DNA from: Dehalococcoidia bacterium
GTDB lineage: Bacteria > Chloroflexota > Dehalococcoidia > Plut-88900
Reading direction: 5' to 3'
NCBI GenBank assembly: GCA_965197585.1
Contig: OZ240215.1
Span: 2,208,001-2,272,000, forward strand
Length of the DNA: 64,000 nt
Of this stretch, positions 19,618 through 33,977 are shown piece by piece. The first letter of the stretch is position 1. Each line of letters opens with the position of its first letter. The notes below the pieces were generated by a model, which ran no database searches, had not been told where the DNA came from, and worked only from the letters and a program-made list of their open reading frames with translations. The position numbers were made by a program, and so were the translations under genes.

Positions 19618-20559
19618 TGCGCAAAGTTTCCGTAGAAATCCGACAGTCCATGTAAGCTCATGGACATGTCAAATCTCACACTGATAACGTTGGCCTGGGA
19701 GTTGTACGAGCAAGGGATGACAAAAGCGCAGATAGCGCGGCAGTTGGGTAAACACCGGGAGACGATCCATCTGTGGGTTCGGGGCATCCAAGAACAGGGG
19801 CTGCTGCCCTTCCTTGGGCGATACGAGCAAGCCAAGAAGGGGCCCAGGTTAGGGAGGCGGGTCGACCCGATGGTGAAGCGATGGATTTGGGCCATTAGGG
19901 AGCGGGAGGCGGGGTGCTGTGGACAGAAGATCGCCTACTTCCTGGAGCGGGAACACGGGGTACGCCTGTCAGTGCCTAAGATATATGAGATCCTGAAGGA
20001 GAAGTACATCATCCGTTCCAAGTGGAAGAAGAATCGGCGTAGAGGGCCGGTGCCCACGGCCAGCAGCCCTCGCCAGGTGGTACAGATGGACACGGTGATG
20101 TTTGGAGGCCTGTTTGCCTTCACCGGCATCGACATATACACCAGGGAGGCAGACATCCTGTTAGCCCCCTCCCTGACCGCCGCTTACGGCTGTGCCTTCC
20201 TGGAACAAGCGATGACACGGCGCTTCGATAGCAGGGTGGAGTTGATCCAAACGGACGGGGGCAGTGAGTTCAAAGAGGCCTTTGCAGAGCGGGTGTTGGC
20301 CTACTGCCAACGACACCGGGTGGCTCGGCCCTACAAGAAGAACGAGCAGGCCTACATCGAGAGCTTCAACCGGACAGTGCGGAAAGAATGTCTGGGCTGG
20401 ACCCGCTACAGCGCCCAGGACCTTCCCCAGTGCCGGAGATTAGTAGAGCAGTTCCTGGATCGGTATCACTACCACCGCCCACACCTCGCCCTCGGACTAA
20501 AACCCCCTCTCAAGAAAGGAGTCTTCCACCTGTCGGATATTTACGCATAATATTGCGCA
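19618..20559 (+). mobile_element. intact DDE insertion sequence (IS481/IS30-like, single ORF)
   Basis: About 29-bp imperfect terminal inverted repeats tgcgcaaagtttccgtagaaatccgacag / ctgtcggatatttacgcataatattgcgca. Confidence 0.85.
19660..20550 (+). CDS. DDE transposase (HTH plus integrase core)
   Basis: QIARQLG HTH; QMD, QTDGGSEF, IESFNRT, RPHLAL. Confidence 0.9.
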   Translation: MDMSNLTLITLAWELYEQGMTKAQIARQLGKHRETIHLWVRGIQEQGLLPFLGRYEQAKKGPRLGRRVDPMVKRWIWAIREREAGCCGQKIAYFLEREHGVRLSVPKIYEILKEKYIIRSKWKKNRRRGPVPTASSPRQVVQMDTVMFGGLFAFTGIDIYTREADILLAPSLTAAYGCAFLEQAMTRRFDSRVELIQTDGGSEFKEAFAERVLAYCQRHRVARPYKKNEQAYIESFNRTVRKECLGWTRYSAQDLPQCRRLVEQFLDRYHYHRPHLALGLKPPLKKGVFHLSDIYA

Positions 20560-29222: not shown

Positions 29223-31529
29223 TTAGGAACACCACTCAATGCGAGGCAAGGCATCCGGGTGTTCCGGAAGCCGAACGACGATGTCTACGACACTTCCGTC
29301 GTCTACCTCAATGCGGGTTGCGTCTTTCGGTACGGTAGTGAATCCCCCCGGGCCGTACCACCCTACGAAGGCGCATCCCTCGCGGGCGGCGTAAATTTCC
29401 AGAATGAAGGAACTGCCGGGGGCAAGCATACCAAAGAAGCCATCCTCCCTGGTTCTGGCGAATACGGCCTTAAACTCCCTCCCGGAAACGACGGCGGACA
29501 GGCGTATTCCTTCCAACGGCTGGTTGTTCGGCCCGATCACCTTGCCCTGAATGGTGATGATTTCCTCTGAGGGATACTGGACCTCCGATGGTGTGTAGGG
29601 CGACATGTCGAATCCCTGCTCGTCAAAGTAGGCCAGGCGATTCGGTATTGTCCTCAGAATCACAACTCGTTGGAGGGCGGTCAGCCGCTCCGGTTGATAC
29701 CGCACGGCGAACCATGCCGTGAAGCTCTCCGCGACATCCTCCTGGTCTGGCAAGTCCCGGGCATACGTCGAGATGAACACGCCGTCGGCCGCCTGCGCCG
29801 CACGCCAACCGGGGGAGTCTTTGTGCGCGAGGTCCAGCGTGGTGTGTGTGGCTTCATGGACGAATGTTTCCTCGATGAAAGAGGCGCGGAGACGGTGGTC
29901 CACAATGCCCGTATGAATCAGGATCTTCCCTTGCCTTACAAGCGCTCCCCACAATTCATCGCCGGCGGCGATGTCGACGTACCTGATGCCGGGCAGCAGA
30001 ACCGCCGGCATCCGACCCAGGGCAGGGGCGTACTTCTCGACTTCCGCCTGTGCGGCCTCGATGCTGCCGAATTCGGGATTGACGCGGAATTCCACCACTT
30101 GTCCAGCGTATCGTACATCGAACAGATAGGCATTGACCGTAATCTGCCCGGCGACCCGTCGATCATTGATAAGGCGCTCGCCGCGGCCAGCGTACGTGAT
30201 GCTCTCGAGTCTCGTGGGATCGGAAGGCTCGATGACCCGCTCCGAAATATACACTGTTCCCGACCACGGAGGCACGCCCGTGTGTTCGAGATCGAAGTCC
30301 AGCGTGCGGTCTTCGTCCATGGCAATCTCGACGGTCTCCGTTCCATGGGTGGGCCAGGCGATGGCCCAAACCGTGACCGTCCCCCAGACGTTCGGGAAGC
30401 GGTAGCGCCCGTCGAGACCGATGACCATGGATTCCCGTCTGCCGTCTTCGTTCTGGAGCCGCACGACCGCGCCCGCTAGCACTGGCCCGTTTATCCGGCT
30501 GTCACGCACCGTCCCGGATAGACTGAACGTGGGTGGGACCGTTACTGTTGCGGACCCGGACGCAGCGCCCGCGCTCGCCGTGATCGTCGCCACCCCTCCC
30601 CCGATCCCGGACACCAGACCAAGAGCGTCCACCTCCGCCACCAGGACATCGGCGGACTCCCACGAGAATACGGCCCCCTCCACCGCATGCCCGTTCGCGT
30701 CGAGCGCCTCCGCCGTCAGCTGCACGGTCTCGCCCCACGCGGTCAGTTCGGTCATGGACGGCGACACCTCCACTGAGGCCACCGTCTGCCTCACCGTCAC
30801 CACCGCGGTCCCTGATGCCGACCCGGCCGCCGCCGTGATCGTCGCCGTCCCGTTGCCCGCCGCCGTCACGACACCTTCCGCATCCACCGTCGCCACCGGT
30901 ACGTCGGAGGACTCCCACGAGAATACGGCTCCCGCCACCTCATGCCCGTTCGCATCGCGCGCCTCCGCCGCCAGCTGAACGGTCTCGCCCCACGCGGTCA
31001 CCTCGTTCATGGCCAGCGATACCTCCACCGAGGCCACCGTCTGCCTCACCGTCACCACCACAGACCCTGATGCCGACCCGGCAGACGCCGTGATCGTCGC
31101 CGTCCCGTTGCCTGCCGCCGTCACGGTACCGGCCGCATCCACTGTCGCCACTGAGTTGGCGCTGGTCGTCCAGGTCACGGCTACCCCAGTCATTACGGTG
31201 GAGTCCTGGTCATGCACCTCCACCCTCAGTTGTGTTGTTGTGCCCAGTGCAGTCAACTCCACCGTAGCAAGACTGACCATGACCGCCGTGGGGCGGGCGG
31301 GCTCTGGCGTCGCCGTTGGAGCAGGAGCAGGAGTCGGCGTTGGCTGACGCGTTGGCATAGGCGCCGGGGTTGGCGTCGCTGGCACGGATGTCGGCGTTGG
31401 CAGTGGTATCGGCGTCGCAATAGCGTCGTCAATAGTCTCTACAGGCGTTTGGCCTTGACATGCGGCCATAAGCCCAAGTACCGCGGCAAGGATGGATAAA
31501 ATGATAAATGCACGCATTCCGTATCGCAC
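29223..31529 (-). CDS. lipoprotein with PT linker, three Ig-like (Big_2) repeats and a HExxH zincin domain
   Basis: Lipobox MAAC; 85-aa repeats; FVHEATH and EDVAES motifs. Confidence 0.8.
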   Translation of the reverse strand: MRYGMRAFIILSILAAVLGLMAACQGQTPVETIDDAIATPIPLPTPTSVPATPTPAPMPTRQPTPTPAPAPTATPEPARPTAVMVSLATVELTALGTTTQLRVEVHDQDSTVMTGVAVTWTTSANSVATVDAAGTVTAAGNGTATITASAGSASGSVVVTVRQTVASVEVSLAMNEVTAWGETVQLAAEARDANGHEVAGAVFSWESSDVPVATVDAEGVVTAAGNGTATITAAAGSASGTAVVTVRQTVASVEVSPSMTELTAWGETVQLTAEALDANGHAVEGAVFSWESADVLVAEVDALGLVSGIGGGVATITASAGAASGSATVTVPPTFSLSGTVRDSRINGPVLAGAVVRLQNEDGRRESMVIGLDGRYRFPNVWGTVTVWAIAWPTHGTETVEIAMDEDRTLDFDLEHTGVPPWSGTVYISERVIEPSDPTRLESITYAGRGERLINDRRVAGQITVNAYLFDVRYAGQVVEFRVNPEFGSIEAAQAEVEKYAPALGRMPAVLLPGIRYVDIAAGDELWGALVRQGKILIHTGIVDHRLRASFIEETFVHEATHTTLDLAHKDSPGWRAAQAADGVFISTYARDLPDQEDVAESFTAWFAVRYQPERLTALQRVVILRTIPNRLAYFDEQGFDMSPYTPSEVQYPSEEIITIQGKVIGPNNQPLEGIRLSAVVSGREFKAVFARTREDGFFGMLAPGSSFILEIYAAREGCAFVGWYGPGGFTTVPKDATRIEVDDGSVVDIVVRLPEHPDALPRIEWCS
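30530..31270. repeat. 255-bp tandem coding repeats (Ig-like domains)
   Basis: accgtctgcctcaccgtcaccac at 30781 and 31036. Confidence 0.85.
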
Positions 31530-31638
31530 AAATAGAAGGAACTCCTTTCGGGGTGGGGAGTGGCCCCTTATGCACCCATGTTACCATCCCCTCGCACTAT
31601 GCTAATAGGTAAACTCTCACAACCTCCCACCCCCCTCC

Positions 31639-31800
31639 ATCATTCCGCCCCCGAGCCGGAATCCATCCTTTCCCCGCTCCCCCAGTACCAAACAGAGGCA
31701 TGCACCTGCGCCAAGGCGCAGGTGCATGCCTCTGTTTTTCCCTCCCCCTCTCCCTTAATGGCCCTAAGGGAGAGGGGGACCAAGGGGGTGAGGGTTCCCC
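31639..31800. repeat. composite REP-like palindrome cluster
   Basis: Same module order as 19294-19490; long perfect hairpin aaacagaggcatgcacctgcgcc/ggcgcaggtgcatgcctctgttt. Confidence 0.75.
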
Positions 31801-31835
31801 GGTGGGGTCCCTTCCCCAGGTGTGCAATCAACCCC

Positions 31836-31864
31836 TTGACCCATATGAACATAAGTGCTATTCT
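31836..31864 (+). promoter_or_regulatory. sigma70 promoter with LexA-like box in the spacer
   Basis: TTGACC-17-TATTCT; GAAC-ataa-GTGC at 31847-31858. Confidence 0.5.
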
Positions 31865-32051
31865 CTTCACTGTTCGAACACCAACCCAACTATCTCAAGG
31901 AGGAACCAAAAACCCAGGGAAGCCCACTAGCCCCACCCGAGGACTCAACGCCCCAGCCCAGCCCAACGGCCCTCGCGCAGGCCTGCGGCTCAAGCAAACG
32001 GTGCCATCTCCTCATCCCACGGGTCCCGCGTGCCCCCTTCCCCGGTAGTCA

Positions 32052-32504
32052 GGCGATGGAAAGACGCCCTGGACAGAGCCATAGCGGACCGGCCATTCCC
32101 CGCCGAGACGGGGTCTCGGCGGTCGGTTAGCAGCGAGCTTACGCTATATCAAGCTAGGGGTGGCGGACCGGCTATCCCCGGCCGAGACTCCCTCTCGGAG
32201 GTTGGCCCGCCTGCGAGCTTACGCCATATCAAGCAAGGGGCCGTTGGGCCGCGTAGACCCTCGGGTGGCCCACGCAAATACAATATCTGAGGGGGCTATT
32301 GCCCGATCACTGGCCCCCACCATGCCTGCGGGCATTCAGAGGCGGGGTCAAGGCTCGACTGTCTGCCCGGACAGTCGGAGCCCTCCATCGAGCGCTAGGG
32401 CGCGGTCGGCTGCAATCCGCCCTCGGCGGACCTCCAGGCCCCCGACAGCCGGAACACCGCACGAGCGTAGAGGCTGACAGGCTCAACGGACGTCTTCCAT
32501 CGCC
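32052..32504 (+). ncRNA. candidate large structured non-coding RNA of unknown family
   Basis: Long-range stem 32052-32066/32491-32504, duplicated 78-nt domain, at least 8 hairpins with G-U pairs on the + strand, no credible ORF. Confidence 0.6.
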
Positions 32505-32697
32505 AACCTCCCCAACAGACAGAACCGAAACCCACAAACCCCACAATCGAAGATGCTGCAAGTCCGTCGTAGGCGGGGACCATCCGCCTCGCGCTGGTCC
32601 GCCTCAGGAGGACTGAATAGCCCCCTACTCCATCATCCCGAGGCGCCGCGAGGGATCTGGGGTGGGGGTTCCCACCCCGGCAGTCTTACTTGCGCCC

Positions 32698-32726
32698 TTG
32701 ACACCGCTTTGGCATAACAATAATCT
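32698..32726 (+). promoter_or_regulatory. sigma70 promoter of the CoA-transferase pair
   Basis: TTGACA-17-TAATCT. Confidence 0.6.
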
Positions 32727-32771
32727 TCACACTACATTCCAGTCTCAAGCGACGCCCGGGAGCAGCAACCC

Positions 32772-33977
32772 ATGCCCATGGTTCTCGAAGGTATAACGGT
32801 CATCGAGTTAGCCACAGATCAGCAGGGGCCTGTGGTCGGCGCCCTCCTCGCCGACATGGGTGCCGACGTCATTAAGATCGAGGACAAGGGCCTCGGCGAC
32901 CCGGGCCGCAACGTCCGCGGCGATACCCCTGGCCAGGAACCTTCCCCCCTCTCCTACTACTTCGAAAACAACAACCGTAATAAACGCGGCGTTGCTCTCG
33001 ACTACGGCACCGAGGCCGGACGCGAAGTTATTCGCAATCTCGTCTCCCGCGCCGACATATTCCTCTCCAATTTCCCCATTGCCACCCTCGCAGACATGGG
33101 CCTCGACTACCCGAGACTCTCCGCCGCCAATGACAAGCTGATCTACGCCGTCTCCACCGGTATGGGCCCGGCAGGTCCCGACAAGGACAAGCCCATCAAC
33201 GACATCGCCGCTCAGTTCCTCGGCGGCATCCTCAGTCACGGGAACTCGGATGGCCCCATTCCATTCTGGGGTGGCATGGCCAACCAGGAAGACGCTCTTC
33301 TGCTGGCCTTCGGCATAGTGACTGCCCTTATAGCTCGCGAACGGCATGGGGTTGGGCAGGAGGTCTACTCCGCTTTGCTCGGCAGCCAGATTAACTGGGC
33401 TGCCCTCAACGTACAGAGCAACATATTCAACAAGAAAGAGCCTTGGGGCATGAGGCGCGAAGCCCCGCTGAGTCCCTTCTGGAACTACTACCAGGCCAAG
33501 GACGGCGGGTGGCTCTGCCTCGGCTTCCTCCAGGAGAGCCGAGACTGGCACACCCTCTGCCAGGTCCTCGAACGCGAGGACTTGGAATTCGACCCCCGCT
33601 TCGATTCCAACCCGAAGCGCACCAAGGAAAACAACCAGGTTCTCATTCCCATCATGCGGGAGGCCTTCGCCCAGAAGCCCCTCGCCGAGTGGGAGGAGAT
33701 TCTGGGCAAGCATGATCTGGGATGGTCCAAGCTGAATGACTATGAATCGCTCACTGACGACCCCCAGGTAGTGGCGAACGACTATGTCGTAGACTTCGAG
33801 CACCCCAAGGTCGGGCCTGTGCAATTGGTCGGCATCCCCGTCCGGCTGCAGGAGACACCTGGCAGCGTACGAACCCCAGCCCCCGAGCTTGGCCAGCACA
33901 CCGAAGAAGTCCTGAACGGCGTCGGAGGATACGCACCCGAAGACCTGCAAAAGCTGCGGGACCAGGGCGCGATCTGA
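32772..33977 (+). CDS. CoA-transferase family III (catalytic Asp apparently Asn)
   Basis: LADMGADVIKIE, NRNKR, APELGQHT; MANQED at the catalytic position. Confidence 0.92.
   Translation: MPMVLEGITVIELATDQQGPVVGALLADMGADVIKIEDKGLGDPGRNVRGDTPGQEPSPLSYYFENNNRNKRGVALDYGTEAGREVIRNLVSRADIFLSNFPIATLADMGLDYPRLSAANDKLIYAVSTGMGPAGPDKDKPINDIAAQFLGGILSHGNSDGPIPFWGGMANQEDALLLAFGIVTALIARERHGVGQEVYSALLGSQINWAALNVQSNIFNKKEPWGMRREAPLSPFWNYYQAKDGGWLCLGFLQESRDWHTLCQVLEREDLEFDPRFDSNPKRTKENNQVLIPIMREAFAQKPLAEWEEILGKHDLGWSKLNDYESLTDDPQVVANDYVVDFEHPKVGPVQLVGIPVRLQETPGSVRTPAPELGQHTEEVLNGVGGYAPEDLQKLRDQGAI

Follow-up and report, generated by a model that had tools for sequence, protein, structure and literature searches.

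The region at 31,836–32,620 of the 64,000-nucleotide stretch of Dehalococcoidia bacterium DNA analysed here (the window) is very probably an old, end-damaged copy of a genus-specific, promoter-targeting, MITE-like transposon with an RNA cargo. An earlier note, made from the window alone, had taken it for a stand-alone gene for a large structured RNA, and was blind to its repeat nature because the window contains a single copy. That reading has had to give way to 56 copies in the genome from which the window comes (G000), inverted ends, 5-bp target duplications and an empty site in a relative. Many dispersed copies with target-site duplications (a MITE) were what the note had itself named as speaking against its proposal, and when they were looked for they were there.

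Much of the anatomy originally described is nevertheless real. By sequence inspection ggcgatggaaagacg (32052–32066) stands opposite cgtcttccatcgcc (32491–32504), giving a closing stem of 14 pairs and a single bulged A, inside which gagcc (32076–80) pairs with ggctc (32480–84). The tandem units were recovered by repeat search as two blocks, D1 (32084–32126 and 32163–32205; 43 nt, 79% identity) and D2 (32133–32160 and 32213–32240; 28 nt, 93% identity), with a tandem spacing of 79–80 nt and units of ~78 nt. The upstream promoter claimed for the region was also borne out, a promoter scan giving a sigma-70-like TTGACC-17-TATTCT with TG upstream of the −10 at 31836–31864. The features of the locus are as follows.

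31590–31636, + strand: possible decayed left end, of low confidence, from a weak alignment with the left end TATCTCGTTCAGATAGAGGAGTGACATCACCCCCC of copy E937031
31637–31808, no strand assigned: cluster of REP-like hairpins between the old left end and the promoter (repeat search and E937031 alignment)
31836–31864, + strand: the element's own promoter (promoter scan; alignment of 56 copies)
31868–32051, + strand: conserved leader with the motifs AAGGAGGAAC, CCGAGGACTCAACG, AGCCCA(T/G)CCCAA and GCCATCTCCTCAT (alignments)
32052–32069, + strand: 5′ strand of the closing stem (sequence; all-copy pairing)
32070–32487, + strand: variable core of class 3, with the tandem units 32084–32160 and 32163–32240 and the hairpins listed in the earlier note
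32488–32504, + strand: 3′ strand of the closing stem (sequence; all-copy pairing)
32505–32620, + strand: conserved C/A-rich tail ending CTCAGGAGGACTGAATAG, with a 21-nt insertion in the window copy (alignment)
32621–32692, no strand assigned: REP-like sequence in place of the canonical right end (alignment to copy E851942; repeat search)
32698–32703, + strand: −35 box TTGACA of the downstream CoA-transferase family III gene, 32772–33977 (sequence)

The window copy appears from these alignments to be an old and worn one, both of whose ends have been lost to REP-like sequence. Its good alignment with E937031 begins at the C-run just before a REP-like cluster that the two have in common; in E937031 the same cluster, in the same order, follows the left end and precedes the promoter. 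Within the window this stretch includes perfect inverted repeats at 31690–31737 (23-nt arms) and 31743–31779 (15-nt arms). On the other side alignment to the class-3 copy E851942 stops after GGACTGAA, a repeat family (D3) joins 32623–32640 to 31630–31647, and the canonical right end, ~37 bp ending GAGTACA and expected before the TTGACA at 32698, is missing. As neither canonical end is present, it is on the interior that membership of the family rests for this copy. Three relatives (G003, G005 and G008) have no element at the locus, and their upstream DNA is unalignable there so that no boundary can be read; in G002 a leader stands upstream of the orthologous CoA-transferase gene (in the window PF02515, E = 3.8e-91) and is followed by a shorter and different interior. 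Of the promoter ascribed to that gene in its own right, the TTGACA at 32698 is present; the strict promoter scan did not list it and named TTGGCA-18-TACATT at 32709–32738.

BLAST of G000 with 31836–32620 gave 91 matches, which a further BLAST resolved into 58 hits on the opening 240 nt (the 5′ module) and 48 on the closing 141 nt (the 3′ module), with the interior common to only six places, the window included. From the matches to the two modules 56 units were delimited in G000. By the same means the unit is present in 9 of 41 genomes, these being G000 and all eight other species of its genus, and a search of 32 genomes from other genera found none. A leader covariance model (R1), built from 77 copies of the nine species, matches the window at 31868–32074 with 199.4 bits and yields 421 matches over the nine genomes, 58 in G000, 42 in G001, 54 in G002, 23 in G003, 70 in G004, 52 in G005, 42 in G006, 41 in G007 and 39 in G008; in three sister genera of the family and order (two of the genomes being single contigs, 94% completeness) it yields 0. 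A pattern scan of species-representative genomes gave at least 91 stretches, and the 80 of 91 that were listed are all from Dehalococcoidia bacterium MAGs. Among the genomes searched the family is thus, as far as sequence comparison can tell, specific to one Dehalococcoidia genus. Titles and abstract openings in the literature yielded no description of the element or of a promoter-targeting MITE in the Chloroflexota.

What makes these copies members of a transposing, non-autonomous DNA element, as they evidently are, is the state of their ends. The consensus of 14 complete G000 copies has imperfect 27-bp inverted repeats with TG...CA termini, the left end scoring 8 against the reverse-complemented right end, a value reached by 6 of 2000 shuffles. 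Target duplication was assessed in the 23 copies that have both ends, of which G000 supplied 14 and loci of relatives nine distinct ones (several being orthologues): five bases are duplicated exactly in 12 of the 23 and with at least four of five bases agreeing in 20, and a shifted control gave 0 of 23. Formally the duplication could be read as 5 or 6 bp, since a T follows on either side; the 5-bp register with TG...CA ends was adopted. At one locus (L068) the site before insertion can be read in a relative, G002 having GCC TCCCT TAGCA where G000 has GCC TCCCA, an 869-bp element and then TCCCT TAGCA. This is the one clean empty site, the other loci compared being rearranged.

The choice of target is as regular as the ends. 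In 18 of 26 G000 copies and, among 14 distinct flanks of relatives, in 9, a TTGAC-like pentamer (at least four of five bases) lies at offset 5, counted from the right end, while the count for the same pentamer at each of 29 other offsets is at most 2, and a TAnnnT box follows 16–18 nt beyond the pentamer in 14 of the 26 and 8 of the 14, respectively. Since the right end lands 5 bp upstream of a −35 box, the element is co-oriented with the gene that it precedes: in 50 of the 56 copies a co-oriented ORF of at least 180 aa starts 20–700 nt after the closing stem. Pfam domains were found in 19 of 20 such ORFs scanned, and they belong to unrelated and varied metabolic families, among them Lgt, FAD synthetase, arginase, aminotransferase, MFS and sulfate transporters and amidohydrolases. 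Site-directed integration beside promoters is well known for yeast retrotransposons and, to our knowledge, rare in bacteria.

Complete copies (the 14 from G000) are 734–885 bp long; one of them, of 769 bp, occupies G000 1917677–1918445. From the 5′ side they consist of a left end, TGATCCCGTTCACATAGAGGGGTGACA; a promoter, CCCCTTGAC followed after 17–18 nt by TATATT or TATTAT; a short start-site palindrome of several types (GTTCGAAC, GTCTAGAC, GACTGGCCAGTC); a C-rich leader of ~190 nt that starts AAGGAGGAAC and has long invariant motifs; and then, in that order, the closing stem, the variable core and the C/A-rich tail, after which come a post-tail motif, CTCAGGAGGACTGAA, and the right end, which terminates ...GTGTCACTAATCTACCGAACGAGTACA. 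In the alignment of all 56 copies the −35 TTGA(C/T) is kept throughout. The core, of 300–500 nt, is structured and enclosed by the closing helix of ~15 bp. GGCGATGG is followed 320–520 nt downstream by CCATCGCC in 56 of 56 copies, and this universal pairing makes the closing stem the joint of the conserved 5′ and 3′ modules. It has at least 14 pairs in 53 of the 56. Towards its outer side the stem is class-specific on both strands, since a copy's own two strands form a median of 15 pairs and a pairing with the 3′ strand of another class most commonly 11.

What the stem encloses is exchangeable. By BLAST the interiors of the 56 copies fall into 13 classes, of 12, 10, 6, 6, 6, 6, 3 and 2 members plus five singletons, and the window core is one of the six G000 members of class 3. 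The duplicated domain, which the earlier note took for a ligand- or protein-binding module, is present as tandem units and belongs to one of 13 interchangeable core classes. Copies also recombine, leader segments and cores being exchanged even at orthologous sites. At six such sites the 700-bp flanks are 95.7–98.9% identical, one right flank (81.6%) excepted, and the elements between them 94.7, 89.7, 86.3, 86.4, 89.6 and 59.3% identical, the differences being patchy and concentrated in the start-site region and leader, in an optional tail hairpin and, in one case, in a whole core; at locus L002 both G005 and G002 carry a copy with another core. This recombination accounts for the mosaic classes, and on its account whole elements are no better conserved than the DNA around them; orthologous elements are in fact less so than their flanks, and the comparison lends no support to purifying selection on the whole RNA.

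Which transposase moves the element? An autonomous partner with matching ends was not found in G000 by end-motif scan, which gave, besides the copies themselves, one isolated left end, a 3′ fragment and some fortuitous hits in genes, nor in 80 loci of 8 kb from relatives. Apparently long ‘cores’ in relatives turned out to be wrong stem pairings or copies with extra units, and the 2183-nt core at L149 of a relative resembles an IS insertion. The 423-aa rve gene found in copy E660698 is that of an IS unrelated to the element, present once and bounded by ends of its own. G000 has 29 rve and 11 DDE_Tnp_1 matches. A 1.06-kb rve IS of ~20 copies (98–99% identity), which lies beside several copies of the element, inserts in REP hairpins with an ATTCC duplication and was set aside, as it targets those hairpins and not the element; the likeness of its left end to the right end of the element is equalled in 4 of 2000 shuffles, while to the element's left end it bears none. 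There is in addition an IS481-like IS of 938 bp in three copies, one of them at 19620–20557 of the window; its rve-type DDE transposase, which in that copy lies at 19660–20550, scores best in NCBIfam against IS481, with 126.7 bits and so short of the 224-bit cut-off. Two of its three copies have 5-bp duplications (CACTG, GAGCG) and lie directly 5 bp upstream of TTGACA. Its ends (CGCAAAGTTTCCGTAG...) have no significant similarity to those of the element in a shuffle test, with an in-register identity of 14/27, by hand count, to the element's right end. An IS481/IS3-type (rve) DDE transposase supplied in trans would be the probable mover of the element, and the IS481-like IS, which has target and duplication length in common with it, is tentatively put forward as the best single candidate.

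What the cargo may do has to be pieced together from several signals. In the proposed scheme the element's promoter would make an RNA of ~0.7 kb starting near 31871; the closing helix would be an RNase III site at which the core is released; and the G-poor, unstructured tail would be a Rho loading site, halting transcription from a strong promoter before the neighbouring gene's promoter 5 bp beyond the element. RNase III is known to cut long perfect helices and Rho to load on C-rich, G-poor RNA, and G000 encodes both rho and rnc. Pooled over the 56 copies, the first 55 nt of the tail are 41% A, 38% C, 11% G and 9% T, the leader has 44% C against 20% G, and the C>G and A>T skew is on the promoter strand; a scan of the window gave no + strand terminator-like site 3′ of the element. 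In a sequencing run labelled as a sponge metatranscriptome, contigs lie over the leader at depths of up to 148 and over the core at ~4, with depth 0 in the single-copy flanks; since these depths follow DNA copy number, they may be DNA carry-over. In these data, which are contigs only, 31600–31927 and 32543–32800 are uncovered, a gap to which no weight is attached. One 287-nt contig of this run stops at 32504, together with the closing stem; being a single contig, it is not counted as processing. On balance we lean to the view that it is the element itself that benefits from the RNA or from its transcription, through insulation of insertions or help with propagation; that the RNA has no function is possible though doubtful, and that it acts in trans for the host is somewhat less likely again.

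How far, then, is the RNA what matters in these copies? The stand-alone reading, in which the region is a multi-domain chromosomal RNA gene and the other copies are paralogues spread by ordinary duplication, can point to the promoter, the closing helix, the tandem modules, the lack of an ORF and the lack of an Rfam match. On this last point the earlier note was right: at gathering score Rfam release 15 finds in the whole window solely a tRNA at 838–926, the best match within 31500–32900 at E up to 10 has 29.3 bits against a threshold of 62, so that nothing is near any family threshold, and 12 representatives of other core classes gave 0 matches at E up to 0.01. The covariation among homologues that it had called for is there in part, some core hairpins having compensatory changes (in a 19-copy class-3 core alignment from nine genomes, 11 of 111 consensus pairs, with many G-U variants), while the leader signal is weak, with double changes in 7 of 33 pairs against 3.0 expected and slid controls nearly as high. 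The transposon ends, duplications and empty site, the fixed position 5 bp from the −35 boxes of unrelated genes, the 23–70 copies per genome in one genus only and the exchange of cores at orthologous loci nevertheless make paralogous RNA genes a very remote prospect. Another reading puts the RNA at the centre of what the element does, either as a scaffold or guide that the transposase needs for promoter-directed transposition, or as a mobile regulatory leader or trans-acting RNA of which the host now makes use at dozens of promoters. In its favour are 42 invariant columns in the 77-sequence leader alignment from nine species, retention of the promoter in the copies examined, the class-specific extension of the closing stem on both strands, the strong strand skew in composition and an interior with no transposase remnant (three ORFs of the window were scanned, with 0 Pfam families). 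The weakness of the leader covariation and the fast turnover at orthologous sites tell against it, as does the RNA-labelled evidence, which consists of contigs without strand or transcript ends; nor can the variable core be a target guide, because the target motif is identical for all core classes. We regard as unlikely both this reading and the fuller version of it, in which a promoter-driven, modular RNA cargo of ~0.7 kb, or its transcription, has a part in targeting or propagation, or in which copies are used by the host, a sponge-associated genus, as mobile promoter-proximal regulators before dozens of housekeeping and metabolic genes.

Those with a more austere view of repeats may prefer to dispense with the RNA altogether and to see a DNA-level composite of REP/BIME-like palindromes, with the stems as DNA hairpins, the promoter incidental and no RNA made. 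REP-like hairpins are indeed abundant in the genome, some of them inside and beside the window copy, and an IS of the same genome targets such hairpins. The + strand of 32040–32520 folds at −228.5 kcal/mol (z = −3.44, 0 of 100 shuffles equalling it), and the − strand also folds well (z = −2.07, 2 of 100). Counts of G-U against A-C variants, made on the stems of a Watson-Crick-only fold, favour neither strand, with 135 against 144 over all stems, 21 against 9 in the cleaner helices and, due to an alignment indel, 3 against 26 in the closing stem. Against such a composite stand the near-consensus −35 and −10 boxes (strict pattern TTGAC(C/T/A), 17–18 nt, TATATT or TATTAT) in 48 of the 56 copies, the fact that leader and tail are the best-conserved parts yet have few palindromes, and the one-strand skew, which DNA hairpins would not be expected to produce; the RNA-labelled contigs over leader and core weigh against it weakly. 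We consider it improbable. A coding function, with one or more small proteins as product, might be argued from + strand ORFs of 86–162 aa spanning the region and from two Shine-Dalgarno-like AGGAGG motifs, but it is so improbable as to be negligible. Neither AGGAGG has a start codon at a usable distance, DNA of ~59% G+C such as the interior yields comparable ORFs on both strands, the three + strand ORFs of the window that were scanned match 0 Pfam families, and indels of 1, 2 and 5 nt separate the copies in the alignments, leaving no conserved ORF; the region had been called non-coding from the start, and rightly.

The transposon preferred here is called MITE-like on account of its inverted ends, its target duplication, the number of its copies and the absence of an internal transposase. 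PMC10969869 defines MITEs as ‘typically <500 bp’ and AT-rich, and from that description the family, with copies of 734–885 bp and a G+C-rich interior, departs in size and G+C and further in its exact −35 placement and its long RNA unit with exchangeable cores. According to the same review, MITEs of prokaryotes are commonly located upstream of genes, with sigma-70-like promoters of their own and transcripts that fold stably; it also describes the Correia elements of Neisseria, which are MITEs and which like the present element are non-autonomous, with inverted ends, a target duplication, many copies and sigma-70-like promoters, mostly just upstream of genes (PMC10969869). The differences from these lie in length, in the 5-bp duplication, in the exact −35 offset, in the 0.7-kb RNA unit and in the exchangeable cores. 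Correia elements are of ~100–155 bp, with a TA duplication, and their transcripts are cleaved by RNase III at the paired ends.

The BOX elements of Streptococcus pneumoniae are also named in that review (PMC10969869). The likeness here is one of modular build, the tandem 78-nt units of our element numbering two, and probably three in copies with cores of 547–553 nt. A BOX element has a boxA, a repeated boxB and a boxC, conserved end modules pairing around variable internal ones; it is <300 bp and without clear inverted ends or duplications, whereas inverted ends, duplications and an empty site were found here. The IS481-like IS has the same geometry of 5-bp duplication and TTGACA as the element, but it has its own transposase and no RNA unit, and its ends are not significantly similar. 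With the large non-coding RNAs OLE, GOLLD, ROOL and HEARO the element shares a length of several hundred nt and a multi-helix build, and HEARO is moreover multi-copy and tied to a mobile element. These RNAs occur in wide taxa with strong covariation, whereas the present one has no Rfam match, is restricted to a single genus, sits between transposon ends and lacks a protein partner next to it.

An apparently unique non-coding RNA has here proved to be a repeat, and a check of copy number in the whole genome is due before any new RNA class is named. If the RNA is functional, it would be a new kind of RNA cargo for MITE-like elements and would supply uncultured sponge symbionts with variation close to promoters. 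Whatever its role, since the position is base-exact in most copies and common to the IS481-like IS, the genus offers a natural system and test bed for the recognition of a −35 box, or of a promoter bound by RNA polymerase, by a DDE transposase.

In the window, the copy of the MITE-like element has a REP-like hairpin on either side, one at 31630-31668 and one at 32621-32660; both belong to a single family and read CCATCATTCCG...CGGAATCCATCC and CCATCATCCCGAGG...GGGATCTGG. A motif GGGGTG(A/G)GGGTTCCC stands upstream of both the element promoter and the gene promoter. Upstream there is a divergent gene:

Window 29223-31529, minus strand: gene for a 768-aa protein

Its product contains repeats of the bacterial Ig-like type (Big_2), and its N-terminus resembles that of a lipoprotein; the gene was not found in the ~1.5 kb upstream flank of the orthologous CoA-transferase loci in two other species of the genus (G003 and G005).

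All copies of the element carry, a little way after the -10 box, a short perfect palindrome in the transcription start region, which differs between subfamilies: GTTCGAAC in the window copy (31874-31881), elsewhere GTCTAGAC, GACTGGCCAGTC, GACTAGCTAGTC or AATGGCCAAT. With stems this short it would not form a hairpin; an operator, a target for methylation or restriction, or a site of RNA dimerisation are possible roles. At the opposite end, two copies are followed within ~100 nt by a putative tRNA gene-like sequence (~1531380-1531440 and ~2398900-2398960 on C1, a contig of this genome, G000), reading GGAGTAGCTCAGCGGTAGAG...GGTTCGAATCC and GGGGCGTGGCGCAGTCCGGTAGCGC..., respectively.

REP-like hairpins are themselves targets. 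An rve-type IS of 1.06 kb, with termini TGTAAG...CCACA and 98-99% identity between copies, occupies ~20 places on C1 (e.g. 1222982-1224037), always in the REP-like hairpin GTCATTCC/GAGGCTCCGCGAGGAATC, in either orientation and with a 5-bp duplication, ATTCC. Several of its copies adjoin elements because REP hairpins cluster on the left sides of the latter.

Two partial copies of the element retain opposite ends:

C1 3404961-3405000 (locus L080, ~162-200): solo left end (TGATCCCGTTCACATAGAGGGGTGACATCACCCCC)
C1 3316060-3316207: fragment with tail and right end only

The solo left end directly adjoins a promoter at its -35 box; this promoter has a CIRCE-like inverted repeat, TTAGCACTC-N9-GAGTGCTAA, with a chaperonin gene (Cpn60 Pfam match) downstream. 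The solo end appears to be what was left after a deletion between element promoter and gene promoter. Directly after the right end of the other fragment, which has no leader nearby, come 5 bp and then TTGAC.

Two insertion sequences have promoters at comparable positions:

Window 19620-20557: IS481-like insertion sequence, 938 bp
Window 19660-20550: its ORF, 296 aa
C1 659335-660651 (locus L079, 236-1552): IS present as a single copy, encoding an rve transposase of 423 aa

For the first, IS481 is the top NCBIfam match of the ORF (126.7 bits, under the cut-off). The window copy has a CACTG duplication, and a TTGACA-17-TAAAAT promoter starts directly 5 bp downstream; the same geometry is seen, with a GAGCG duplication, at a second of the three copies in the genome. 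The other IS, whose subterminal repeats are doubled (GGTTACCG...), interrupts the promoter region of an element copy (E660698), where ~4-5 bp separate it from the element's -35 box downstream, and is a third mobile element sharing this kind of target, upstream of a -35 box.
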